From: an uncultured Candidatus Saccharibacteria bacterium
GTDB taxonomy: Bacteria; Patescibacteriota; Minisyncoccia; Phycocordibacterales; UBA9973
DNA length: 64,000 nucleotides
Reading direction: 5' to 3'
Assembly: GCA_964348725.1 (NCBI GenBank)
Contig: CAYGDG010000004.1
Coordinates: 2,133 to 66,132 of the forward strand
In this document: piece after piece, positions 10,828-64,000 of the stretch
Layout of the letters: each line of letters opens with the position of its first letter
Numbering within the stretch: position 1 is the stretch's first letter
Translations under genes and position numbers: made by a program
The notes under the pieces: generated by a model
What the model saw: the letters and a program-made list of their open reading frames with translations, nothing else
What the model was told of the DNA's origin: nothing
The model's database searches: none

Positions 10828-10837
10828 TTTCTGCATT

Positions 10838-10873
10838 CACCCTCTCCTTAATAAGGAGAGGGCAGGGTGAGGT
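10838..10873 (+). repeat. palindromic element copy A (CACCCTCTCCTTAATAAGGAGAGGGCAGGGTGAGGTG), intergenic, 10 nt upstream of the msrB ATG
   Basis: A 10-bp perfect inverted repeat (CCCTCTCCTT / AAGGAGAGGG) with a 3-nt loop, followed by CAGGGTGAGGT. Near-identical to copy B at 61264..61298. Confidence 0.8.
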
Positions 10874-17133: not shown

Positions 17134-17139
17134 TTATTT

Positions 17140-17171
17140 GTAACATTTTCTGCGATAGCAGAGATTGTTAC
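17140..17171 (+). promoter_or_regulatory. 32-nt palindrome copy 1 (GTAACATTTTCTGCGATAGCAGAGATTGTTAC): putative operator and/or terminator
   Basis: Outer inverted repeat GTAACA/TGTTAC plus inner CTGCGATAGCAG. Identical to copy 2. Followed by a T-run. Confidence 0.5.
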
Positions 17172-17296
17172 ATTTAGATATTTTTTATTACTTTTTTATC
17201 AAATATTTAAGAAGGTTTTTTATAATCCCTTCAAATCAGTTATGAGGTAGCCGAAAATCACAAAAAGAGTAGGCATACAAATTTAATATTTTAGCT

Positions 17297-17980
17297 ATGA
17301 AAAAAGTTTTGTTCTTTGTAATTATTTTGGCTATTGCTCCGCCTCTGTCTGCGCAAGTGCACATAGAGGCTCTGGATTTTCCGACAGCTATGACAGTGCC
17401 CGGAGAGAATCAGATGTTTGCTCGGTATCAGATCGCGTCCGATTCAAATTCGGCATATCTGTATATGGATACCTGCAATATGCTTTTCTACGATTTCGGG
17501 AATTTCTCGGGGATGTCCCTGCGGAATGTCAGGCTGTTCGTAGACGGCGAGGAAAGATTGATGCAGATGACGATGCCCGGTGATTTCTGGCAATTTTATC
17601 CGAGCATATTGCTCGGTTTTCCGTATGGCTTTGCGGACACGGCGCAGATTCATTTTCTGGCTGATCTGCCGGACACGCTCGGTGATGACTTCATCCCCTC
17701 CGTAGGCGATTCGCTGTATGCGAGTATCCATTGCAGCTGTCATTATGTTACAGGCACCGGCTCTTTTGCCACCAATGAAGCCATCAGCCAGACTGTCTTC
17801 GTGACGTCTTCCTCCGTCGGAATTGCGCAACCTTCGCCGCAAAATTTCTCCGAGCGCCAAAATGCTCGCTTCTTTGATATCTTAGGCAGAGAAATCAGCC
17901 GAAGCAATCTGGAAAATCTCCCGCCCGGCGTGTACATCTGGCGGAGTGACCGCTTGGCAGGGAAAATCCTCGTGCGGTAA
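17297..17980 (+). CDS. secreted protein with a T9SS (Por)-type C-terminal sorting-domain-like tail
   Basis: Signal peptide MKKVLFFVIILAIAPPLSAQ. The C-terminus FFDILGREISRSNLENLPPGVYIWRSDRLAGKILVR resembles the Por_Secre_tail consensus (..D..GR.V......LP.GVYI......GK..K.LV). Confidence 0.5.
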   Translation: MKKVLFFVIILAIAPPLSAQVHIEALDFPTAMTVPGENQMFARYQIASDSNSAYLYMDTCNMLFYDFGNFSGMSLRNVRLFVDGEERLMQMTMPGDFWQFYPSILLGFPYGFADTAQIHFLADLPDTLGDDFIPSVGDSLYASIHCSCHYVTGTGSFATNEAISQTVFVTSSSVGIAQPSPQNFSERQNARFFDILGREISRSNLENLPPGVYIWRSDRLAGKILVR

Positions 17981-18034
17981 AAATTACTCGCGAGAAAAGC
18001 CATCGGGAACGGTGGCTTTCTTTTTACCAAGAAT

Positions 18035-18066
18035 GTAACATTTTCTGCGATAGCAGAGATTGTTAC
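18035..18066 (+). promoter_or_regulatory. 32-nt palindrome copy 2, immediately upstream of a TATAAT and the PaaX-like gene
   Basis: Identical to copy 1. Followed by ATCTAATCACACCTATAATAATATG, so it overlaps the likely promoter of 18089..18571. Confidence 0.5.
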
Positions 18067-18088
18067 ATCTAATCACACCTATAATAAT

Positions 18089-18571: not shown

Positions 18572-18578
18572 AAAATAA

Positions 18579-18610
18579 GTTACATTTCCTGCTATCGCAG
18601 AGTTTGTAAC
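18579..18610 (+). promoter_or_regulatory. 32-nt palindrome copy 3 (GTTACATTTCCTGCTATCGCAGAGTTTGTAAC), just after the PaaX-like stop codon
   Basis: Same architecture as copies 1 and 2, with the core reverse-complemented. Followed by TTTTAT. Confidence 0.5.
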
Positions 18611-18783
18611 TTTTATAAATATTTCGGCGCGTTGTCCAGCCAGCCCAAAATAAAGCCCAGAGCGAGGAAGATGACAAGCAGAACGGCGAGGATTATGTAG
18701 GTTTTTCGCATATCTTAATTATATAAGATAATAACCAAAATAAAAACAGGAAGCTTGTAATTACAAGCTTCCTGTTCATTTTT

Positions 18784-34116: not shown

Positions 34117-35994
34117 TTATTCCGTTTTTACTTCCTCAAACTTCACTTTCTCCTCCTTTCCCTTGATGACTTTCTCCGGCTGGAAGGCGCGGGAGAGAGG
34201 GACGGTATGCATGGCGGCTGTCATGGAGCCGTCTTTTTTTATTTTTATTTCCAGGAGCGCGCCGCGCATGGTATTTACGGAAAAGTATTGATCAAAGATA
34301 AAATTACCGAGGCTGTATGCGATGTAGCCATTTTTATATATTTCCGTATCCTGCACCACGTGCGGATGCGCGCCGATGACGAGCTTGGCGCCCGCATCTA
34401 CTGCGCGGTGGGCGAGCGTTTCTTGCCGTTCATTGTGTTTCGTCTGATATTCATCGCCGAAGTGAAATGATACGACGAGGTGATCTACTTCCGCGGCGGC
34501 ATTTTTTATTATTTCATCAAAATTCGGATCGCTGGCGAGGAGGAGCCCGGCTTCAGTTTCTGTCGCTTTCATCCAGTCGGGACCCACATCAGAGAAAGCG
34601 ATATAGCCTATCTTGATACCATACTTTTCTATGATTGCCGGCTTTTTCGCTTCTTCGTAATTCATGCCGCCGCCGGCTGTGAGTATTTCATTTTCTTTCA
34701 GGCGAGCGAGGGTATCGGTGAAGGCATTTCTACCCCAGTCGCCGACATGATTATTTGCAAGCGACAGTACGGAAAAGCCCGCGCCTTTGAGAGCGGGAGG
34801 CACGGTAGGGTCCATACGGAAAGAATACAAGTTACGTTTGTCAGCGCCTTGATCCGATGCGGGACCTTCCAGATTCGCAAATGCGATGTCCGCTTTTTGC
34901 AATATCCCCAGATTTTCAAAAAGAGCGGTATAATCACCGCCAAAATTTTTCATGACAGAATTTTTGACACCCCGATCCAGCATGATGTCGCCGCCGAAGA
35001 CGAGCGTGAGGAAGTCCGGATCTTTTATTTCCGGCACGCCTTCTTTTTCTTTCACCCAGGCAGTGTCCGCGTCCGCTTCGCCGCCGTAGTATACATTTTT
35101 TTTCAGATATTTCACGAGGCTCATGACGTCCGCATATCTATCAGGGCTCCGCAGGAGGGCGATGGCGACAGTGCGGTTGCCCGTTTCGGAAAGCGGTAGT
35201 ATAAAGACGGATAGTACGGTTTGACGCGCAGGATCAGTGTAGCCGCTCTTGCCGCCCTGATATCCTTCTTCACGCAGGAATTGATTGTTTGATGACCAGA
35301 TATGGCGGTCGGTCTTATATGTTCGTTTAGAACTTATGGAAAAGAGCTCAGGTTTTTTTGTACTAATGAAACCGGCAAGGCGAAAGAGGTCAAGCGCACT
35401 GCCTTGATTCCCGGCGGAAAGCCCGCTCGGATCGGCAAATGATGCTGACAATGCGAGGCGCTCGGATTCCTGGTTCATTTTTGCGATAAAATTTTCACGT
35501 CCGAAATGTTCGGCAAGTATTTCCGCGGCATCGTTTGATGATTCCAGAAGCAGGGGATACAAGAGGTCGCCAGTCTGTATTTTTTCACCTTTCCGAAAGC
35601 CGCCGTTTTCGCCGTATGTGGCGAGCGCGCGAGGGGATACTATCGCCGTGTCATGTTCGCGCGGTAGCTCCGTAGATACGAGGGCAGTCATGAGCTTGGA
35701 CACGGACGCGAGCGGCATCACTTCTTTTTCATTCTTTTTTAAAATTATTTCTCCGGTATCCAAGTCGCCCACGATGTATGCTTCTGCGGCTACTTTTGGT
35801 TTGGCGCTGCCATCTTTGAGGAAATAAAAGAATTCCGGCTCTTGTGGTACAGGGGTCACGGTGACGGGCGCCGGCTCACCTGTTTTTATTTTCTGATAAT
35901 TCGCACTCGTAATAAAAAAGACGAGCGATACGCCTACACCGATGGAAAAAATGGTCCAGAAAAATGCCTTGATTTTTCCTGTGTGCGTCATCAT
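34117..35994 (-). CDS. fusion protein: N-terminal serine-type D-Ala-D-Ala carboxypeptidase (PBP5/DacA-like) domain plus C-terminal CapA/PgsA-type metallophosphatase domain
   Basis: N-terminal TM segment. SxxK LASVSKLMTALV. SxN SSNDAA. KTG-like KSGYT. The C-terminal half has VFGGDIMLDRGV ... FANLEGP ... LANNHVGDWG ... VVSFHFGDEY ... GAHPHVVQ ... YSLGNFIFDQ (CapA/YwtB-like). Confidence 0.65.
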   Translation of the reverse strand: MMTHTGKIKAFFWTIFSIGVGVSLVFFITSANYQKIKTGEPAPVTVTPVPQEPEFFYFLKDGSAKPKVAAEAYIVGDLDTGEIILKKNEKEVMPLASVSKLMTALVSTELPREHDTAIVSPRALATYGENGGFRKGEKIQTGDLLYPLLLESSNDAAEILAEHFGRENFIAKMNQESERLALSASFADPSGLSAGNQGSALDLFRLAGFISTKKPELFSISSKRTYKTDRHIWSSNNQFLREEGYQGGKSGYTDPARQTVLSVFILPLSETGNRTVAIALLRSPDRYADVMSLVKYLKKNVYYGGEADADTAWVKEKEGVPEIKDPDFLTLVFGGDIMLDRGVKNSVMKNFGGDYTALFENLGILQKADIAFANLEGPASDQGADKRNLYSFRMDPTVPPALKGAGFSVLSLANNHVGDWGRNAFTDTLARLKENEILTAGGGMNYEEAKKPAIIEKYGIKIGYIAFSDVGPDWMKATETEAGLLLASDPNFDEIIKNAAAEVDHLVVSFHFGDEYQTKHNERQETLAHRAVDAGAKLVIGAHPHVVQDTEIYKNGYIAYSLGNFIFDQYFSVNTMRGALLEIKIKKDGSMTAAMHTVPLSRAFQPEKVIKGKEEKVKFEEVKTE

Positions 35995-37952
35995 GCTAGT
36001 TCGTAATCAATTATTTTGCGCTCCAAATCTGCCTTTTTTACTTTTATTTTTACGCTGTCGCCCAGGCGATAGCGCTTTTTCTTTTTCTTGCCGACGAGCT
36101 CCAGTTTTTTCTCGTCAAAGATATAAAAATCGTCCGATATGTCGCGGGCGCGTACCATGCCTTCGCACTTTGTCTCAATTTCTTCCACGTATATGCCCCA
36201 CTCGGTGACGCCGGAGATGATGCCTTTAAATGTCTCCCCAATACGGTGCGACATGTATTCCGTCTGCTTGTATTTGATGGATGCGCGTTCAGCGTCAGAT
36301 GCGCGCTTTTCCTGGTCGGAACTTTTGCGGGACATCATCTCATACTCGCTCAATTTTTCTTTCGGCACTTTCTTGCCGGCAAGGTATTCCATAAGCAGGC
36401 GGTGCACCATCACGTCCGGATAGCGGCGGATAGGGGAAGTAAAGTGCGTGTAGTGCTCAAAAGCGAGGCCGTAGTGCCCGATATTTTTTGTGGAGTATAT
36501 CGCTTTTGCCATAGAGCGGATGACCGCGCGATGCACGGCGTCCTTTTCGGGCTTGCCGGCGAGCGAGGCGAGGAGTTTATTTATTTCAAATGGGGGAATG
36601 ACGCCGTTCAGTAATTTTACTTTGTATCCGAGGCCGTTTAGGAAGAGCGCAAGGTCGTGCATTTTTTCTTTTTCCGGCGCGTCATGAATGCGGTACACGA
36701 AGACGCCTTCGCCTTTCTTCATTCCTTTGCCAATGCGTTCGGCTACTTTACGATTCGCGAGGAGCATGAGCTCTTCTATCAATTTATTTGAATCTCCGCG
36801 CACTTTTTTTATGACTTTGAGCGGCACGCCTTTTTCATCCAGCACGAATTTTACTTCTTCCTGGTCCAAAGACACTGCGCCTTTCCGGAAGCGCTCAGCG
36901 GTGAGCTTTTTGGCGATGCCGTTTATGATGGCGAGTTCCGCGTGTAATTCACCATTCTTATCCGTGATAGATTTCTCCGCGTCTTCATAGCTGAAACGCT
37001 TTGCGGAGTGGATGACGGTGCGGCCGAACCATTCATCCAGTACCTGACCTTCTGTGTTCATGTGGAATACGGCGCTCATGGTCAGGCGGTCCTGGCCGGG
37101 CACGAGGGAGCAGAGATCATTTGAAAGTACTTCGGGGAGCATGGGTATCGTCCTGTCTACCAAATATACAGAAGTCGCCCGCTCGCGCGCTTCCTGATCC
37201 AGCTCGCTGCCGGGACGCACGTAATACGATACGTCTGCGATGTGGATGCCGATTTCGTACACCTCACCCCCTGACCCCCTCTCCTTAGTAAGGAGAGGGG
37301 GAAGAATGCGGAAAGAAATCGCGTCATCAAAATCTTTCGCATCTGCCGGGTCAATAGTGAAGGTGAGTATGTTTCTGAAATCGCGGCGGCCTTCGTAATC
37401 TTTTTCAGAAATGCCGAGCCGGCTGATGGCCTGCGCTTCATCTTCCGTACCTCTTGGCAGATCTGGCGCAAAGCCGCGCTCAATGGCGATGGCATTCATC
37501 TCGGCGGAATTTTCGCCCGGCTTGCCGAGCACGCGCATGACTTTTCCTTCAGGCGCTTTGCGCGCATCTTTCCACGACGCTATCTCTACGTACGCTTTTT
37601 CGCCGGCTTTGGCGCCGCCCAGGTTCGCCGGGGGGATCAAGATGTCCGTATACATCTTTGTATCATCTGGCTTCAAAAAAAACACGCCGTTCTCTTCTTC
37701 AATCACGCCGGAAAAACCACGCTTGGCGCGGGATATGATTTCCACCACTTCGCCCGTCTGCCGCACACCTTTCTTTTGCGGGAATAAGGCCACGAGCACG
37801 GTATCGCCGTGCAGGCCGGTGTGCAGATGCAGGGATTCTATTTCCACATCTTCTTCATCTTTCTTTTTTTTCGGTTCCAATGTGCGCAGGTAGCCTACGC
37901 CTTTACCGGAAACAGACAGTATGCCTTCAAGGCGGTTAGATTGTGTATCCAT
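35991..37952 (-). CDS. rnr: ribonuclease R (RNB-family 3'-5' exoribonuclease) carrying an in-frame palindromic-element insertion
   Basis: Cold-shock-like N-terminal domains. RNB motifs FTIDPADAKDFDDAISF and HFTSPIRRYPDVMVHRLL. C-terminal S1 domain and a K-rich tail. Confidence 0.85.
   Translation of the reverse strand: MDTQSNRLEGILSVSGKGVGYLRTLEPKKKKDEEDVEIESLHLHTGLHGDTVLVALFPQKKGVRQTGEVVEIISRAKRGFSGVIEEENGVFFLKPDDTKMYTDILIPPANLGGAKAGEKAYVEIASWKDARKAPEGKVMRVLGKPGENSAEMNAIAIERGFAPDLPRGTEDEAQAISRLGISEKDYEGRRDFRNILTFTIDPADAKDFDDAISFRILPPLLTKERGSGGEVYEIGIHIADVSYYVRPGSELDQEARERATSVYLVDRTIPMLPEVLSNDLCSLVPGQDRLTMSAVFHMNTEGQVLDEWFGRTVIHSAKRFSYEDAEKSITDKNGELHAELAIINGIAKKLTAERFRKGAVSLDQEEVKFVLDEKGVPLKVIKKVRGDSNKLIEELMLLANRKVAERIGKGMKKGEGVFVYRIHDAPEKEKMHDLALFLNGLGYKVKLLNGVIPPFEINKLLASLAGKPEKDAVHRAVIRSMAKAIYSTKNIGHYGLAFEHYTHFTSPIRRYPDVMVHRLLMEYLAGKKVPKEKLSEYEMMSRKSSDQEKRASDAERASIKYKQTEYMSHRIGETFKGIISGVTEWGIYVEEIETKCEGMVRARDISDDFYIFDEKKLELVGKKKKKRYRLGDSVKIKVKKADLERKIIDYELA
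37261..37300 (-). repeat. palindromic element copy C, in-frame inside rnr (encodes PPLLTKERGSGGEV)
   Basis: The sense strand reads CCCCCTCTCCTTACTAAGGAGAGGGGGTCAGGGGGTGAGG. Same family as copies A and B, with substitutions that remove in-frame stop codons. Confidence 0.7.
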
Positions 37953-48333: not shown

Positions 48334-48418
48334 GGATCCCGTTAGAGATAACAAATTACAAGCCTCATTAATAAGTAAATATAGTAAAAATTATTTATGA
48401 AAATCTCTAACGGGATGG
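48334..48418 (+). promoter_or_regulatory. long-range inverted repeat spanning the dnaG ribosome-binding region and start codon
   Basis: GGATCCCGTTAGAGAT (48334..48349) and ATCTCTAACGGGATGG (48403..48418). 14-bp perfect complementarity. The dnaG ATG is at 48397. Confidence 0.45.
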
Positions 48419-50172
48419 ACTCTCCCGTAGAAAAAATAAAGGAGAGGCTTTCCATCGAAGAAGTAGTCTCTTCCTACATAAAGCTTGAGAGGTCCGGGAT
48501 GAATTTCAAAGCCCGTTGCCCTTTTCACAATGAGAAGACCCCGTCTTTTTATGTGTCGCCGGACAGGGGAGGCTACTATTGCTTCGGCTGCTCCGCCAAG
48601 GGAGATATCTTCACCTTCGTGGAAGAATTCGAAGGGCTTGATTTCAAGGGTGCGCTGAAGCTCCTCGCCGAGCGCGCGGGCGTGCAGCTCGCTCGGTATA
48701 ATCCGAAAGAAGAAAGCGAAAAGGAAAAACTGTACCGCGTGATGGAAGAGGCGACTGCGTTCTTTGAGAAAAATTTGGAAACAAATGCAGAAGCGAAAAA
48801 ATACCTGAAAGACCGCGGCTTGGAAGAAAAGACTACAGCAGAATTTCGCATCGGTTTCGTGCCGGATGATTGGCGCTTACTGTATGCGCACCTGCAAAAA
48901 AAAGGATTTGCCGACAGTGAGATAGAAAAAGCTGGGCTCGCAAAAAAATCAGAGAAAAGCTTGCCCGCCTCTGGCTGGGGGATGTATGATAGATTCCGCT
49001 CACGCATCATGTTCCCAATTTCTGATTCTTCCGGCCGTGTCATCGCATTCTCTGGCAGGGTTTTCGGACCGGCGTCCGAAAACCCTGCCAATGCAAAATA
49101 CCTCAACAGCCCCGACACGCCCATCTTCTACAAATCCTCTGTACTGTACGGCCTCGACAAGGCCAAGGACTCCATCCGCAAGAATAATTTTTCCATCCTT
49201 GTGGAAGGACAGATGGATCTCGTGCTTTCGCATCAGGCGGGCTTCAAGAATACCGTCGCTACTTCCGGCACAGCGCTTTCGGAGTCCACTGTCTCTCGCG
49301 AAAATGCCGTGAACAACCTCGGCCTCATCCGCCGCCTCTCCGGCAATATCGTGCTGGCTTTCGATGCGGACAAAGCAGGACTTTCCGCCGCCGGACGCGC
49401 CGGCAAGATCGCCCTCGCGCTCGGTATGGATGTAAAGGCTGCTTCGCTGCCCGAAGGCATCGATCCGGCTGACCTCATCGTGAAAGAGGGCGCAGAAGCC
49501 TGGAAAGCCGCCGTGCGCAATTCAAAGCACATCATCGAGTTCTTGCTCGAGAAAGTCTTAAAAAACACGCCGGACGAGCGCAAGGCAGGCAGGGAAATCA
49601 AGGAGAAAATACTGCCATATGTGGCATCGCTCGACAGCGCCATCGAGCAGGCGCACTTCTTAAAGAAGATCAGCGATGCTTCCGGCATACCGGAGAGTGC
49701 ATTGCAGGAGGATTGGAAAAAGGTAGAGCAAGAGGTAAAATATACTAAGGAAGCGCCCGCCGAAACCTCGGACAAATACCGCGAAAGCAAGATGTTCCGC
49801 CGGGATTACATCGAGCGGCGCTTGCTCGGCATAGCTCTCTGGCAACAGAAACAGAAAGAGCCGAAAGTGGACGCGGAGAATATTTTAAACAAGCTCGGTG
49901 GTATTCTGGAAAAATACGCCGACTCTAAAGAAGACCTGATATTCGAAGCTGAAGTATTTTATGAAAACAACATACGCCTCGCTCGGGATGTGGCGGAAAT
50001 GCTGCAAAATCTCGAAGAGGAAGAGATAAATGAAGAGCTGGCGCGGAAGATGCGCGACCTGCATATCGCGGAAGAAAAGAAAGAGAAAGAGAAGTCCGCG
50101 GAAATTTTAAAAGAAATCAATGAGTTGAATAAGAAGAAGGAAGAAATTAAAAACAGTCGCTTTTCCGCCTGA
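48397..50172 (+). CDS. dnaG: DNA primase
   Basis: Zinc ribbon CPFHNEKTPSFYV ... CFGCSAKGD. RNA polymerase domain. TOPRIM ILVEGQMDLV ... LAFDADKAG. Confidence 0.9.
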   Translation: MKISNGMDSPVEKIKERLSIEEVVSSYIKLERSGMNFKARCPFHNEKTPSFYVSPDRGGYYCFGCSAKGDIFTFVEEFEGLDFKGALKLLAERAGVQLARYNPKEESEKEKLYRVMEEATAFFEKNLETNAEAKKYLKDRGLEEKTTAEFRIGFVPDDWRLLYAHLQKKGFADSEIEKAGLAKKSEKSLPASGWGMYDRFRSRIMFPISDSSGRVIAFSGRVFGPASENPANAKYLNSPDTPIFYKSSVLYGLDKAKDSIRKNNFSILVEGQMDLVLSHQAGFKNTVATSGTALSESTVSRENAVNNLGLIRRLSGNIVLAFDADKAGLSAAGRAGKIALALGMDVKAASLPEGIDPADLIVKEGAEAWKAAVRNSKHIIEFLLEKVLKNTPDERKAGREIKEKILPYVASLDSAIEQAHFLKKISDASGIPESALQEDWKKVEQEVKYTKEAPAETSDKYRESKMFRRDYIERRLLGIALWQQKQKEPKVDAENILNKLGGILEKYADSKEDLIFEAEVFYENNIRLARDVAEMLQNLEEEEINEELARKMRDLHIAEEKKEKEKSAEILKEINELNKKKEEIKNSRFSA

Positions 50173-51487: not shown

Positions 51488-51494
51488 CAGGCTT

Positions 51495-51590
51495 CCCCTC
51501 CTTGATTAAGGAGGGGATTGAGGGGTGGTAATTCAAAAAATCACCACCTCGGCCTTCGGCCACTCCTCCTCAATAAGGAGGAGAAATATG
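51495..51590 (+). repeat. cluster of three GC-rich hairpins after rpoD, two of them SD/anti-SD-like palindromes related to the repeat family
   Basis: CCCCTCCTTgatTAAGGAGGGG followed by ATTGAGGGGTGG. GGCCttcgGCC. CTCCTCCTcaatAAGGAGGAG followed 7 nt later by an ATG that opens a 13-codon ORF. Confidence 0.6.
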
Positions 51591-58168: not shown

Positions 58169-59437
58169 ATGCGACAATCCAAGCTTTTCACCAAGACCCG
58201 CAAAGAGGCTCCGGCAGAGGAGGTATCTAGAAATGCCGAGCTTTTGATACGCGGCGGCTACATTCATAAGGAGATGGCTGGCGTGTATGCTTATCTGCCA
58301 TTGGGTATTCGCGTAATAGAAAAGATAAAAAATATAATTCGTGAAGAAATGGATGCTGTGGGCGGGCAAGAACTTTATATGACTACTCTTCAGCCGAAAG
58401 ATATTTGGGAAAAGACTGATCGCTGGGATGATGCAAAAGTCGATAACTGGTTCAAGACAAAATTAAAGAATGGCGAAGAACTCGGAGTTGGTCTGACTCA
58501 CGAAGAACCTATAGTGGATGCGATAAGCAATTATGTTTCTTCATATCGCGATTTGCCTTTTTCCGTCTACCAGATCCAGAATAAGTTTCGCAATGAATTG
58601 CGCGCAAAAAGCGGCTTATTGCGCGGCAGGGAATTCATTATGAAAGATATGTATTCTTTTGCCAGAACGGAAGAAGAACACACGGAGCTGTACGAAAAAA
58701 TCGCTGCTGCGTATCATAGGGTGTATACAAGGCTCGGTATCGGGCATATCACATATCGCACATATGCCGACGGCGGCATTTTCACCAAGAAGTTCAGCGA
58801 TGAATTCCAGGTACTTTCCAGTGTAGGTGAAGACACTATATATTTGGATGAAGAAAAGAATATCGCCATCAATAAAGAAATATACACAGATGAGAATTTG
58901 GAAAAATTAGGTCTTGATAAGGCAAAATTGGTGGAAAAGAGAGCGATAGAAGTGGGTAATATCTTTCCGCTTGAAAGCAAGTATACCGATGCTCTGGATG
59001 TTTATTTTACGGATGAAAATGGAGAAAAAAAATCCATAATCTCAGGCTGCTACGGAATAGGTGTGAGCCGCACGATGGGCGTGCTTGCTGAAATACTTTC
59101 TGACGACAAGGGCATCATCTGGCCGGAAGCTGTCGCGCCTTTTAGGGTGCACTTGCTTGCCCTCGGCGAAGATGAGGCGGTGCAGAAAGAAGCAGAAAAG
59201 GTTTTCAATGATTTGGAAAATGCTGGGATAGAAGTGCTTTTTGATGACCGCACGGACATGTCGGCAGGGGCAAAGTTTGCCGATGCGGACTTGCTCGGCA
59301 TGCCATATCGCGCAGTCATTTCCGCGAGAAGCATGAAAGAAGGCGGTGTGGAATTGAAGAAGCGGAATGAAGAGAAAGGCAGAGTTATCAGCACAGATGA
59401 ATTAGTTAGGGCTTTAGACCCTAACGAGAGGGTCTAA
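58169..59437 (+). CDS. proS: proline--tRNA ligase (short form without editing insertion)
   Basis: MRQSKLFTKTRKEAPAEEVSRNAELLIRGGYI ... AGVYAYLPLGIRV. Class II motifs. C-terminal anticodon-binding domain. Alternative upstream ATGs at 58121 and 58157. Confidence 0.8.
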   Translation: MRQSKLFTKTRKEAPAEEVSRNAELLIRGGYIHKEMAGVYAYLPLGIRVIEKIKNIIREEMDAVGGQELYMTTLQPKDIWEKTDRWDDAKVDNWFKTKLKNGEELGVGLTHEEPIVDAISNYVSSYRDLPFSVYQIQNKFRNELRAKSGLLRGREFIMKDMYSFARTEEEHTELYEKIAAAYHRVYTRLGIGHITYRTYADGGIFTKKFSDEFQVLSSVGEDTIYLDEEKNIAINKEIYTDENLEKLGLDKAKLVEKRAIEVGNIFPLESKYTDALDVYFTDENGEKKSIISGCYGIGVSRTMGVLAEILSDDKGIIWPEAVAPFRVHLLALGEDEAVQKEAEKVFNDLENAGIEVLFDDRTDMSAGAKFADADLLGMPYRAVISARSMKEGGVELKKRNEEKGRVISTDELVRALDPNERV

Positions 59438-59451
59438 AGCCCTAACTACAT

Positions 59452-60498: not shown

Positions 60499-61276
60499 AA
60501 AGAATCGGCAGAAAAAATATCGCACCATTGCGATAGGCGTTTTCATTTTGCTCGTCGCCATATATTTCCGTGCGGAAATTTACAATGGCTTTTCGCGTGT
60601 TCTCGGCGCGGTGGCAAAACCATTTCTCTCGTTCGGCCGAAATGTGGGCGGCGGCATTTCCGGCACTGGCGCGGCTTTTGCTTCCAAAAAATCTTTGCGT
60701 GCGGAAAATGAAAATCTAGAGGCACAGCTCGCCGAAATGCAGGGCAGGATGGGGAACTATGATATTCTGGCCGCCGAAAATGAAAACTTGAAAGAAATAT
60801 TGGCGAGAAAAAAAACTCCCGGCACATTGCTCCTCGCCGCCATCCTCGCACATCCGAACCGCTCTTTATACGATACTGTACTTATAGACGCGGGCGAAGC
60901 TGAAGGGGTGAAAGCAGGCGACAGGGTATTCGCGGAAGGCGATATACCGCTCGGCACAGTGGCGGAAGTCATGCCGCACTCGGCAAAAGTGCTCTTGTAT
61001 TCAAATCCCGGCGAGAAGACCGAAGCCATCCTCGGCGAAGGGCATGTCACCCTCACCGGCCGCGGCAGGGGAAATTTTGAGATGATTCTGCCGCGTGATT
61101 ATGTATTGGAGCCAGGCACTGCCGCGCATCTGCCCGGTATATATCCGTATGTCATTGCCCGCACGGCCACGGTCATTTCCGACCCGCGGGATTCGTTTCA
61201 GAAAGCGTTACTGATCAGCCCGGTGAATATTAATCACCTCAAATTTGTGGAGGTGGAGGTTTCACCCTCTCCTTAA
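60479..61276 (+). CDS. mreC: rod shape-determining protein MreC
   Basis: N-terminal TM segment. Coiled coil ENENLEAQLAEMQ ... ENENLKEIL. Beta-rich C-terminal domain. The last 6 codons and the TAA stop lie inside palindromic element copy B. Overlaps mreB. Confidence 0.8.
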   Translation: MSYLLDKKNRQKKYRTIAIGVFILLVAIYFRAEIYNGFSRVLGAVAKPFLSFGRNVGGGISGTGAAFASKKSLRAENENLEAQLAEMQGRMGNYDILAAENENLKEILARKKTPGTLLLAAILAHPNRSLYDTVLIDAGEAEGVKAGDRVFAEGDIPLGTVAEVMPHSAKVLLYSNPGEKTEAILGEGHVTLTGRGRGNFEMILPRDYVLEPGTAAHLPGIYPYVIARTATVISDPRDSFQKALLISPVNINHLKFVEVEVSPSP

Positions 61277-61298
61277 TAAGGAGAGGGCAGGGTGAGGT
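61264..61298 (+). repeat. palindromic element copy B (CACCCTCTCCTTAATAAGGAGAGGGCAGGGTGAGGT), between mreC and tgt
   Basis: Identical over about 35 nt to copy A. It supplies the mreC stop codon and a GGTGAGGT motif 5 nt upstream of the tgt ATG. Confidence 0.8.
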
Positions 61299-61302
61299 TC
61301 TT

Positions 61303-62568
61303 ATGAAATTTGAAATTATAAAAAAACTAAATAATTTGCTCGGTCGCGCGGGAATTTTAGAAACTCCGCACGGGGTTATCCGCACGCCGGCATTCGTGGC
61401 CGTCGGTACGAAAGCGACGGTGAAATCCCTCACGCCCGAGCACGTCAAAAGCGCCGGCTGCCAAGTGGTGCTCGGCAATACCTATCATTTATATTTACAG
61501 CCCGGCGATGAGATAGTGCGCAAAGCCGGCGGCATCGGGAAATTTATGAATTGGCAAGGACCGACGATGACGGATTCCGGCGGCTTCCAGGTATTTTCGC
61601 TGGGCGCGGCATACGGCAAAGATATTTCTAAAGTAATAAAAATCACCGACCCGTCGCTCCTAATACCAGAGCGTTTTGATGACAGCGATGCTCCGCGCCT
61701 CGCGAAGATCGGCGCAGACGGCGTGTCCTTCAAATCGCACTTGGACGGAAGCATTCACTACATCACGCCGGAAAAATCCATCCAGATCCAGCACAATCTC
61801 GGCGCGGATATTATTTTCGCTTTTGACGAATGCACTTCGCCGGCGGAAGATGTGCGCTATCAGGAAGAAGCATTGGAACGCACGCACCGCTGGGCGGAGC
61901 GATGTTTACGGGAGCACATCAAACTTAATACCACCCCCTTACCCCCTCCTAATTTAGGAGGGGGAAGCTCCGACCTAGGTCGGAGCGGGGGAGGTATCGC
62001 ATTGTTTGGAATTGTGCAAGGCGGCAGGGAAGAAAATTTACGCAAAAAATCCGCCAAGATAATTTCGGAGATGCAAGTGGATGGAAAAGGATTTGATGGC
62101 TTCGGCATCGGCGGCTCTTTCGCGAAGGAAGATATGAGTACTGCCGTAAAATGGGTGAATGAAATTTTGCCGGAAGAAAAGCCGCGGCACTTGCTCGGCA
62201 TCGGCGAGCCGGAAGATTTTTTTATGGGCATAGAAAACGGCGTGGATCTTTTTGACTGCGTCATCCCGACGCGCCTCGGCCGAAACGGCACGATATATAC
62301 GAAAAGAGGGAAGATAGTGATCACGAATGCGCAGTACAGAGAAGATTTTACGCCGATAGAGGATGACTGCCCGTGCACGACCTGCCAAGGCTACACCAAA
62401 GCCTACATCGCGCACCTTTTCCGCGGCAAAGAAATGCTCGCCGGCACGCTCGCCTCCACGCATAATATGTATTTCATCGTCTCCCTCGTAGACAAAATCC
62501 GGCAATCTATTTTGGATGGAAATTTTTATGAATTTAAGGAAAGCTTTATGAGGGAATATATAAAATAA
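61303..62568 (+). CDS. tgt: queuine tRNA-ribosyltransferase carrying an in-frame palindromic insertion
   Basis: TPAFVAVGTKA, QGPTMTDSGGFQVFSLG, LGIGEPED ... DLFDCVIPTR, and the zinc site CPCTTCQGYTKAYIAHL. Confidence 0.9.
   Translation: MKFEIIKKLNNLLGRAGILETPHGVIRTPAFVAVGTKATVKSLTPEHVKSAGCQVVLGNTYHLYLQPGDEIVRKAGGIGKFMNWQGPTMTDSGGFQVFSLGAAYGKDISKVIKITDPSLLIPERFDDSDAPRLAKIGADGVSFKSHLDGSIHYITPEKSIQIQHNLGADIIFAFDECTSPAEDVRYQEEALERTHRWAERCLREHIKLNTTPLPPPNLGGGSSDLGRSGGGIALFGIVQGGREENLRKKSAKIISEMQVDGKGFDGFGIGGSFAKEDMSTAVKWVNEILPEEKPRHLLGIGEPEDFFMGIENGVDLFDCVIPTRLGRNGTIYTKRGKIVITNAQYREDFTPIEDDCPCTTCQGYTKAYIAHLFRGKEMLAGTLASTHNMYFIVSLVDKIRQSILDGNFYEFKESFMREYIK
61931..61993 (+). repeat. composite palindromic element inserted in-frame in tgt (encodes TTPLPPPNLGGGSSDLGRSGGGI)
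   Basis: CCCCCTCCTaatttAGGAGGGGG followed by CTCCGACCTAGGTCGGAG. About 20 extra residues relative to the canonical Tgt loop between RWA..R and ALFGI(I/V)QGG. Confidence 0.65.
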
Positions 62569-63081: not shown

Positions 63082-64000
63082 ATGGGGTTTAAACTCAAAA
63101 CTGAATTTCAGCCTGCGGGCGACCAGCCGAAGGCTATAGAGGGGCTGGTGAGCGGGCTCAAAAAGGGTATGCGGAAGCAGACATTGCTGGGTGTGACGGG
63201 TTCGGGCAAGACTTTTACGATGGCGAATGTCATACAGCAGATGCAAAAGCCGACGCTGGTGATAGCGCATAACAAGACCCTGGCCGCCCAGCTGGCGCAG
63301 GAGTTCAAGGAATTTTTTCCGGAAAATGCCGTGCATTATTTTGTTTCTTATTACGATTATTACCAGCCGGAAGCGTACTTGCCGACGACGGACACATACA
63401 TAGAAAAAGACGCGCAAATAAATAAAGAGATTGATCGGCTTCGTCATGCGAGTACGCAGGCACTTTTGTCCAGAAAAGATGTGATAATAGTTGCCTCAGT
63501 GTCCTGCATTTACGGCTTGGGAAGTCCGGAAGAATATAAGGAAGAAAATATGTCCCTCGCCGTGGGCGATGCCGCCGGGCGCTCGGAGATAATGAAGCGC
63601 CTTATCGGTATGCATTTCTCGCGCACGAATGCGGACCTGACGCCGGGAACTTTCCGCGCGATGGGGCAAAAGGTAGAACTGATGCCGATTTCGGAGACTT
63701 TTACATATAGTATTGAATTTTCCCCCTCTCCTTTACAAGGAGAGGGCGGGGGTGAGGTTCTTCGCATTTTAAAAATAGACGCCGTGTCATCCAAAGTCCT
63801 CGGTGAAGAGCAGAATATTTTTATTTTTCCGGCGAAGCACTTCATCACGAACAAAGCGAAGCTTCAGCAGGCGATAAAAAATATCAAAGAAGAACTGAAA
63901 GCCCAGCTGAAGAAATTTGATAAGGAAGGAAAAATTTTGGAAGCCGAGCGGCTGAAGCGCCGCACGAATTATGATCTGGCGATGCTGCGCGAAGTGGGCT
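63082..64000 (+). CDS. uvrB: excinuclease ABC subunit B (5' part; continues beyond window)
   Basis: MGFKLKTEFQPAGDQPKAIEGLVSGL ... QTLLGVTGSGKTFTMANVI ... YFVSYYDYYQPEAY ... ASVSCIYGLGSPEEY. Confidence 0.9.
   Translation, partial: MGFKLKTEFQPAGDQPKAIEGLVSGLKKGMRKQTLLGVTGSGKTFTMANVIQQMQKPTLVIAHNKTLAAQLAQEFKEFFPENAVHYFVSYYDYYQPEAYLPTTDTYIEKDAQINKEIDRLRHASTQALLSRKDVIIVASVSCIYGLGSPEEYKEENMSLAVGDAAGRSEIMKRLIGMHFSRTNADLTPGTFRAMGQKVELMPISETFTYSIEFSPSPLQGEGGGEVLRILKIDAVSSKVLGEEQNIFIFPAKHFITNKAKLQQAIKNIKEELKAQLKKFDKEGKILEAERLKRRTNYDLAMLREVG
63722..63758 (+). repeat. palindromic element copy D in-frame inside uvrB (encodes SPSPLQGEGGGEV)
   Basis: CCCCCTCTCCTTTACAAGGAGAGGGCGGGGGTGAGGT. Same family. 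The stop-creating positions are altered (TTTACAA loop, GGCGGGGG). Confidence 0.7.

Follow-up and report, generated by a model that had tools for sequence, protein, structure and literature searches.

A triplex-type repeat within the reading frame of RNase R in a Candidate Phyla Radiation bacterium

Why does the RNase R gene of a Candidate Phyla Radiation (CPR) bacterium carry, between two of its catalytic motifs, a DNA segment that also occurs outside the gene? The gene, rnr, lies in a stretch of 64,000 nucleotides of contig CAYGDG010000004.1, hereafter referred to as the window. An earlier note on this DNA described the segment as a palindromic element inserted in frame, which adds about 10 residues to the protein and whose differences from intergenic copies would record selection after the insertion. 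Our analysis indicates that the segment is a copy of a short dispersed repeat of the BoxC/PIT/'TM' kind, with a layout that would allow single-stranded DNA to fold back twice into a predicted intrastrand triplex. The best explanation of the locus, and one that we regard as probable, is that such a repeat replaced the tip of a hairpin encoded by rnr and persists as a tolerated passenger, copies having arrived recurrently and independently of a transposase, with selection acting as a filter.

The repeat copy within rnr

The longest open reading frame (ORF) over the repeat site is rnr (35991..37952, minus strand), which is intact, encodes 653 amino acids and, in agreement with the earlier note, is translated straight across the repeat as DFDDAISFRILPPLLTKERGSGGEVYEIGIHIADVS. 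Pfam places OB_RNB, CSD2, RNB (residues 189-525 in a single stretch, E 6e-105) and S1 domains on the product, which scores 672.6 bits against the NCBIfam RNase R equivalog TIGR02063 (cut-off 597.85); the complete OB/CSD, RNB and S1 architecture together with a score above the cut-off identifies it as RNase R. The insert lengthens this protein by 10 residues between the RNB motifs DFDDA and IADVS. When aligned, the RNase R structures of Bacillus subtilis (8cdu) and Escherichia coli (5xgu) show a 10-residue gap at the insert, and the spacing from DDA to IADV, which is 26 residues in the window, is 16 in 79 of the 80 RNase R loci of other lineages (Bacteroidota, Saccharibacteria, Campbellbacteria) among the matches listed, as it is in alleles with an empty site. 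The size claimed for the insertion is thus right. A contig scan with an RNase R alignment, whose listed matches were filled by Bacteroidota and included 3 close relatives, served as the distant control. At the DNA level, the 7-codon tip (21 nt) of a beta-hairpin between RNB motifs I (DFDDA) and II (IADVS) is swapped for 17 codons; the earlier note had recognised neither that 21 nt are replaced nor that many relatives have the same site filled.

The repeat is read on the minus strand. Its 42-nt core occupies 37260-37301 in plus-strand numbering (37260-37307 with the 5' ATTCTT included); the position proposed before, 37261-37300, falls inside the repeat. Read along the gene, it runs ATTCTT CCCCCTCTCCTT ACT AAGGAGAGGGGG TCA GGGGGTGAGGTG, the core being 5'-CCCCCTCTCCTTACTAAGGAGAGGGGGTCAGGGGGTGAGGTG-3'. 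The pyrimidine (Y) arm CCCCCTCTCCTT (37290..37301, minus strand like all parts of the copy; codons PPLL) pairs with the purine (R) arm AAGGAGAGGGGG (37275..37286; codons KERG) at 12 of 12 positions, as a 12-bp hairpin with a predicted energy of -14.1 kcal/mol as DNA and z values of -3.7 and -5.4 for the two strands (ViennaRNA; hairpin only, no triplex model). Loop 1, ACT (Thr; 37287..37289), is AAT, TCT or GGT in orthologs. Loop 2, TCA (Ser; 37272..37274), is CTA or TTA in orthologs and leads to a third arm of reverse-Hoogsteen (RH) type, GGGGGTGAGGTG (37260..37271; codons GGEV), which mirrors the R arm. The 5' flank ATTCTT (37302..37307; codons IL) is constant across all filled rnr alleles and therefore probably belongs to the element.

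The hairpin pattern has four matches in the 64-kb window and none in 100 shuffles, while a looser three-part pattern finds five copies, with two further variants after rpoD. The seven copies comprise three in frame inside housekeeping genes (rnr, tgt and uvrB), one at the mreC-tgt junction, one before msrB and the two after rpoD.

Triplex-type design and known repeat families

The tail that follows the hairpin is a mirror of the purine arm, in which G stays G and A becomes T or A. This relation is seen in subfamily 1 (arm AAGGAGAGGG, tail GGGTGAGGTT), in subfamily 2 (arm AAGGAGGGGA, tail AGGGGTGGTA) and in the tgt copy (arm AGGAGGGGG, tail GGGGGAGGT). Taking all hairpins with homopurine 3' arms in the collected loci, which represent 45 distinct arm sequences, every arm type (45/45) has its own mirror copy at most 12 nt downstream; 29 of these matches are perfect, and 39 of the 45 score 0.9 or more. 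Tails of other arms match perfectly in 5.6% of comparisons, and 0 of 10,000 permutations reached the observed mean mirror match. Two other descriptions of the tail were rejected: read as a direct repeat of the purine arm, it matches perfectly in no more than 3 of the 45 arm types, against 29 for the mirror, and as a partner of an upstream ACCTCACCC arm it fits a minority of two-sided copies only.

In a class II purine-motif intrastrand triplex, a G/T/A strand lies antiparallel to the purine arm of a hairpin duplex and forms G.G:C, T.A:T and A.A:T triads (PMC4666352). The ITxF criteria for such sequences are stems of 6-15 nt, at most one mismatched triad and loops of 1-6 nt (Holder et al. 2015, PMC4666352). 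The rnr copy has the order Y, R, RH on the minus strand (CCCCCTCTCCTT-ACT-AAGGAGAGGGGG-TCA-GGGGGTGAGGTG), 12-nt stems, allowed triads (G.G:C, T.A:T, A.A:T) at 11 of 12 R/RH positions and two loops of 3 nt, and the RH arm tracks the purine arm over the 45 arm types. The palindromic element of the earlier note is therefore indeed a dispersed hairpin repeat, but one of three-part, triplex-type build and not a simple palindrome.

BoxC/PIT/TM repeats are abundant in many bacteria and form very stable triplexes in vitro. To our knowledge, neither a function nor a route of spread has been established for them, and descriptions place them between genes. The BoxC and PIT literature reportedly includes work by Bachellier and colleagues in the 1990s, by Hoyne and colleagues in 2000, and by Hoyne and Maher in 2002. 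Hoyne and colleagues re-described BoxC of E. coli as potential intrastrand triplex (PIT) elements; Holder et al. 2015 (PMC4666352) did so as TMECO, with the pattern CCCTCNCCC N3-6 GGGNGAGGG N3 GGGNGAGGG and, as an example, CCCTCTCCC TTGA GGGAGAGGG TTA GGGTGAGGG (PMC4666352); we found two TMECO copies in the hrpB-mrcB spacer of strain MG1655. TMECO has neither promoter nor terminator activity nor a linked transposase; the intergenic places that it marks are unstable, and in MG1655 its position is "always located intergenically" (PMC4666352); its archaeal analogues are intergenic as well.

The link to BoxC was drawn from a table in PMC4666352 and from MG1655 coordinates. The CPR element has in common with BoxC/PIT/TMECO the order Y arm, loop, R arm, 3-nt loop and reverse-Hoogsteen arm (class II purine motif), conserved stems alongside variable loops, the lack of a linked transposase and local sequence change nearby. 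It shares with BoxC/TMECO the 8-mer trio CCCTCTCC / GGAGAGGG / GGGTGAGG, and with TMECO the occurrence of inverted pairs, represented here by the rpoD spacer and the two-sided tgt copy; the second loop is similar, being TTA in type A TMECO and TTA, CTA or TCA in the CPR element. The loop-proximal pairs, in contrast, are T:A in the CPR element and C:G in TMECO. Since T:A stands in place of C:G next to loop 1, the strict TMECO pattern fails, with 0 matches in the window, and strict TMECO/BoxC membership was rejected. Further differences are arms that reach 12 nt, a CPR bacterium instead of a proteobacterium as host, small hairpins or further copies nested in the loops, and the presence of copies on viral contigs. 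Unlike TMECO, the CPR element is also found within genes, in frame, and repeatedly at the same positions: of the seven copies in the window, three are intragenic and in frame, and another spans a stop codon. As a blastn query against E. coli genomes the element is too short and too low in complexity, and no match was obtained; Rfam at the gathering threshold recorded nothing at the element, only a tRNA and a DUF805b motif.

Like the Rickettsia palindromic elements (RPE; Ogata et al. 2000; PMC10969869), the CPR element is a selfish-looking palindromic repeat that lies in frame in unrelated housekeeping genes of a reduced genome and adds peptide at fold-compatible sites (PMC10969869). RPE are about 100-150 bp long, lack a triplex-type third arm and are restricted to Rickettsia, whereas the CPR element measures 42-50 nt and refills the same site; sequence similarity between the two was not seen. 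Membership of the RPE was rejected on this length and on the NCBIfam matches, which comprise only RNase R/II and S1-type families and no RPE family. REP/REPIN sequences with RAYT (Y1) are likewise short GC-rich hairpin repeats, 20-40 nt long and mostly intergenic, but the CPR element lacks their GTAG/CGTC head.

Genes for a Y1_Tnp protein (PF01797, RAYT-like, 220 amino acids) do lie a few kb from rnr in two relatives (L207 6772-7434 and L209 352-1017, both minus strand), and the palindrome CTAGGCAAGGCCTAG stands on both sides of each; this points to a putative separate REP/RAYT-like system in Nomurabacteria. A tblastn search with the two proteins found no match in the window. A RAYT/Y1 transposase was rejected for now as the mobiliser, and REP/RAYT membership of the element with it, as these genes are flanked by a different palindrome and are absent from the window.

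The repeat is of a known class and behaves, in this CPR genome, like a Rickettsia palindromic element, repeatedly at the same protein loops. The literature searched held no description of these elements from CPR/Patescibacteria or from within a gene; as far as it goes, what is new is the recurrent intragenic in-frame use, the replacement-type junctions and the presence in this phylum, and not the element class. The in-frame colonisation of genes known from Rickettsia is found also in CPR bacteria, with a different and much shorter element. Many filled and empty pairs at one conserved coding site, with exact junctions, make the spreading mechanism of triplex repeats testable. The repeat moreover explains part of the length variation in conserved CPR proteins and can be a source of error in alignments, in the placing of domain boundaries and in gene calls.

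Filled and empty sites and the arrival of the repeat

The 120 best RNase R homologs, all from Nomurabacteria/Paceibacterota and at most 71% identical apart from the protein itself, comprise 64 with an empty site and a short tip (SF-KEL-GKEE-YEIG) and 56 with filled, longer tips. Many of the filled orthologs share RILPPLLxKERGLGGEV. The rest include members of a second subfamily (PSLxKEGVGGG), composites formed by nesting, and segments that look unrelated; the same rnr site is thus occupied by two or more element subfamilies and by nested copies. In a neighbour-joining tree with the insert site masked, filled and empty alleles are interleaved, and Fitch parsimony gives an empty root and at least 22 changes, a count that is only indicative since the tree is weak at this divergence. 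The empty tips are homologous across clades and could not be recreated by deletion, which argues for repeated gain over repeated loss. These comparisons show an insert that is derived, at a site whose occupancy is patchy and repeated. The earlier view of an insertion and not an ancestral loop withstands the refuting condition that the note itself had set, the segment being absent in Bacteroidota, Saccharibacteria, Campbellbacteria, B. subtilis and E. coli and patchy in close relatives.

The clearest example is the filled allele P0005, which nests among five empty relatives. Its DNA is 88% identical over 1911 nt to that of the empty allele P0074, and the site measures 51 nt in the former (CGTATCCTT...GAGGCG) and 21 nt in the latter (AAAGATTTAGGTAATGACCAA). 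In the rnr of P0069 (L210 10001-12127), loop 1 houses two more elements of triplex type in opposite orientations, which brings the insert to 41 amino acids; the loops of its elements serve as insertion sites themselves. A separate observation concerns the rnr of a Candidatus Nomurabacteria metagenome-assembled genome (L002 10001-11920), whose empty site reads SF-RIL-NDNE-YEVG. RIL otherwise accompanies the element, and here would be either a favoured pre-insertion state or the footprint of a loss.

At the DNA level, five filled alleles were compared whose genes are 63-75% identical. Third codon positions agree in 34-53% of codons across the gene, against 11-12 of 12 in the three arms (P 2e-6 to 4e-3 per pair), and the loops vary (ACT, AAT, TCT or GGT in loop 1; TCA or CTA in loop 2). 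Stems that are fixed and loops that are free correspond to the pattern of a repeat family, not to that of a selected peptide. P0003 carries a decayed copy of subfamily 2; with this copy eroded, the intact ones would be either young or refreshed by conversion.

The earlier note had held that the rnr copy departs from the intergenic consensus exactly where in-frame stops would arise. This is true of the 3' difference, as the short 3' part of the intergenic copies (GGGCAGGGTGA) would give an in-frame TGA and a frameshift. It is not true of the loop: AAT in place of ACT encodes Asn in the rnr frame, and orthologs P0004 and P0009 carry it. The idea that the differences record selection after the insertion is also not supported as it stands, given that the loop change makes no stop and that the rnr copy is not a short copy put right. 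Its long form, with arms of 12 nt and loops of 3 nt (42 nt, or 14 codons), is a pre-existing subfamily of its own, present outside rnr in metagenome contigs, for example at L137 and at L149, which carries an identical GGTCAGGGGGTGAGGT. The long-arm form is present as well in the apparently recent insertion of P0005. Selection, therefore, most likely acts as a filter on the variant, orientation and frame that survive.

Counts on DNA give a replaced stretch of 21 nt for rnr and of 12 nt for tgt. At the mreC-tgt junction the last codon was replaced together with the stop and the spacer, and in uvrB the stretch is about 18 nt, as estimated from proteins only. No target duplication is visible at these four sites. 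The replaced tracts are purine-rich, and those of rnr and uvrB resemble the loop-2/RH end of the element; TTAGGTGAAGAAGAA and CTAGGGGGTGAGGTG match at 11 of 18 positions with the next codon included, a weak signal in an AT-rich genome. The lack of a linked transposase favours transposase-independent copying. Copies would arrive repeatedly by a process of this type, guided by structure or microhomology, and its targets would be purine-rich tracts that code for loops. A template switch where a fork has stalled is one candidate, microhomology-guided recombination over a short patch the other. Selection would then remove all but the in-frame, stop-free and loop-located products, filtering frame, orientation and variant. 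Survival in rnr may have been favoured by a 12+3+12+3+12 nt core that is divisible by three, by the absence of a stop in the sense orientation and the rnr frame, and by a Pro/Gly-rich product (PPLL-x-KERG-x-GGEV) that would merely lengthen a loop.

With regard to the protein, an AlphaFold2 model (40 orthologs, mean pLDDT 74.8) places strands 211-217 and 231-239 on either side of the insert, residues 223-228 having pLDDT below 50. Half of the orthologs lack the insert and the connecting loop is of low pLDDT, from which we infer that the insert lengthens the hairpin tip and is tolerated, probably without a role in RNase R.

Several points weigh against this account of a passively tolerated and recurrently arriving repeat. 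No mobilising enzyme or mechanism was found, nor any transposase linked to the element, and the same junctions and the same replaced 21 nt in all filled alleles fit short-patch allele transfer equally well. Gene conversion by other copies could be an alternative source of the conservation of the arms. The neighbour-joining tree is poorly resolved at 65-70% identity, which leaves the gain count rough, and the covariation test picked orientation and representative copy by mirror score, a mild bias. Concerning the triplex, the in vivo footprint of the E. coli TMECO was negative (PMC4666352) and the folding of the rnr copy is a prediction from sequence. Surface exposure of the insert is likewise deduced from secondary structure and pLDDT only, in a model of moderate quality.

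The transfer just mentioned would consist of a filled allele of single origin, spread among Nomurabacteria by DNA uptake and short-patch homologous recombination at the flanks DFDDAISF and YEIGIHIADVS. It is a serious rival for subfamily 1, whose alleles share their junctions, the replaced 21 nt and the absence of a target duplication, and the flanks rank among the most conserved parts of rnr. As an account of the locus as a whole we consider it unlikely, since it does not explain why the site holds two or more subfamilies that differ in sequence, besides several inserts of other types, loops 1 and 2 differ among alleles, and the 24-30 nt beside the P0005 insert are no closer to filled alleles than to the empty relative, a short comparison of little power. 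A single old insertion, inherited vertically and lost many times, with arms preserved either by gene conversion or by selection acting on the structure of DNA or RNA, would be in line with arms that are perfectly conserved while the synonymous sites of the gene are saturated, and with filled alleles as common as 56 of 120. It seems quite improbable in view of the homologous K-E-L-G-x-E-E tip that empty sites share across clades and distant lineages, and that deletion could not recreate, of the position of P0005 within five empty relatives, and of the decayed copies, which imply that the arms are not strongly protected.

The recurrent occupation of one site would also be expected if the insert had been co-opted, either as a DNA structure or Shine-Dalgarno-like pause (AAGGAG, GGTGAGGTG) regulating rnr or as a protein loop in contact with a partner, and in intergenic copies the RH arm does stand 4-9 nt upstream of a start codon, a distance at which it could act as a ribosome-binding site. 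Around half of the orthologs do without the insert, however, its loops, which are the sole freely coding positions, vary, its pLDDT is low, no usefully placed start codon lies downstream and purine-motif triplexes do not form in RNA (PMC4666352), all of which makes co-option very improbable. As for an ancestral RNase R loop that resembles the intergenic repeat by chance, nothing beyond the presence of the segment in many orthologs speaks for it. With 0 matches expected by chance, absence in 79 of 80 other loci and in the solved structures, and arms identical at the nucleotide level, it is refuted, and its probability is practically nil.

Our preferred reading remains a BoxC/PIT/'TM'-kind repeat that replaced the hairpin tip and is tolerated there. 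A broader and tentative proposal, which we consider possible but doubtful, is that BoxC-like repeats are copied site-selectively and without a transposase, by replacement guided by structure or microhomology, into purine-rich tracts that code for loops, and repeatedly remodel the same surface loops of housekeeping proteins (RNase R, Tgt and UvrB) in CPR bacteria, nested copies lengthening the inserts. If so, triplex repeats would be a main source of protein length variation in the reduced genomes of the CPR.

Further copies and other palindromes

The tgt gene (61303-62568, plus strand) contains a two-sided in-frame copy (61930..61995, plus strand; peptide TTPLPPPNLGGGSSDLGRSGGG), both strands of which read Y-R-RH. 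The order is ACCACCCCC, TTA, Y arm CCCCCTCCT, loop, R arm AGGAGGGGG, nested hairpin GCTCCGACCTAGGTCGGAGC and RH arm GGGGGAGGT. In Nomurabacteria, the loop that follows HIKLNT in Tgt is a marked hot spot of highly variable insertions. Its site is empty (NTENK-IALFG) in about a third of 120 orthologs, and the remaining ones have inserts of 10-55 residues of several repeat-like kinds, such as SSFLGSLSASADAALTLGSSACERPQKE and NLAPLLVEEGVGGGDLKDHHLALKGTSPQKGGEEF. In the tgt of the closest relative the element agrees with that of the window, the hairpin nested in loop 2 being a different one. The in-frame copy in uvrB (63718..63758, plus strand; peptide SPSPLQGEGGGEV, tip IEF-xGG-KIS), a gene that runs off the window end, is translated through the hairpin in a different frame; its insert is unique among 120 homologs and hence probably recent.

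At the mreC-tgt junction (61261..61298, plus strand), loop 1 of the copy contains the mreC stop TAA, and 4 nt separate the end of the RH arm GGGTGAGGT from the ATG of tgt. This copy is absent in the relatives L211 and L212, whose mreC ends in ...IEK* or ...IQK*, and the element may supply mreC with a new C-terminus and tgt with a ribosome-binding site. The intergenic copy between a DUF1761 gene and msrB (10836..10873, plus strand) has the same RH arm 9 nt upstream of the msrB ATG. After the rpoD stop, a subfamily-2 copy (51494..51530, plus strand), TCCCCTCCTT GATT AAGGAGGGGA TTG AGGGGTGGTA, is followed by an inverted partner (51543..51583, minus strand), CTCCTCCT TATTG AGGAGGAG, the nested hairpin GGCCGAAGGCC in loop 2 and GAGGTGGT.

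Beyond the window, the exact hairpin occurs in at least 120 metagenome stretches, the third arm also being present in about 90% of the copies among the matches listed. It is found as well in 28 stretches of IMG/VR viral contigs, where 31 of 32 copies have the third arm, which makes viral contigs a possible route for the repeat between genomes. Copies may also be clustered: L120 has four identical ones at 2242-2838 with a period of about 175 nt, the viral contig L214 five in 7.3 kb, and L109 five in 5.4 kb.

Other palindromes are present in the window. A 38-nt palindrome, TGTAACATTTTCTGCGATAGCAGAGATTGTTACA, occurs three times in successive intergenic spacers (17139-17176, 18034-18071 and 18578-18615); the three copies could be operators or a shared leader. 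The Rfam DUF805b motif lies at 17241-17275, just upstream of the ORF 17297-17980. A palindrome with a 20-bp stem at 59403-59448 is spanned by no open frame on either strand, and a GC-rich one with a 13-bp stem (2378-2406) falls within the ORF 1764-2723 (SSGGGGVASAA). A perfect palindrome with a 17-bp stem, TGGCAGGGTTTTCGGACC-GG-CGTCCGAAAACCCTGCCA (49053-49090), lies inside a dnaG-like ORF (48397-50172, plus strand; peptide FSGRVFGPASENPAN) and could represent a further palindrome inserted in frame, from a separate family.

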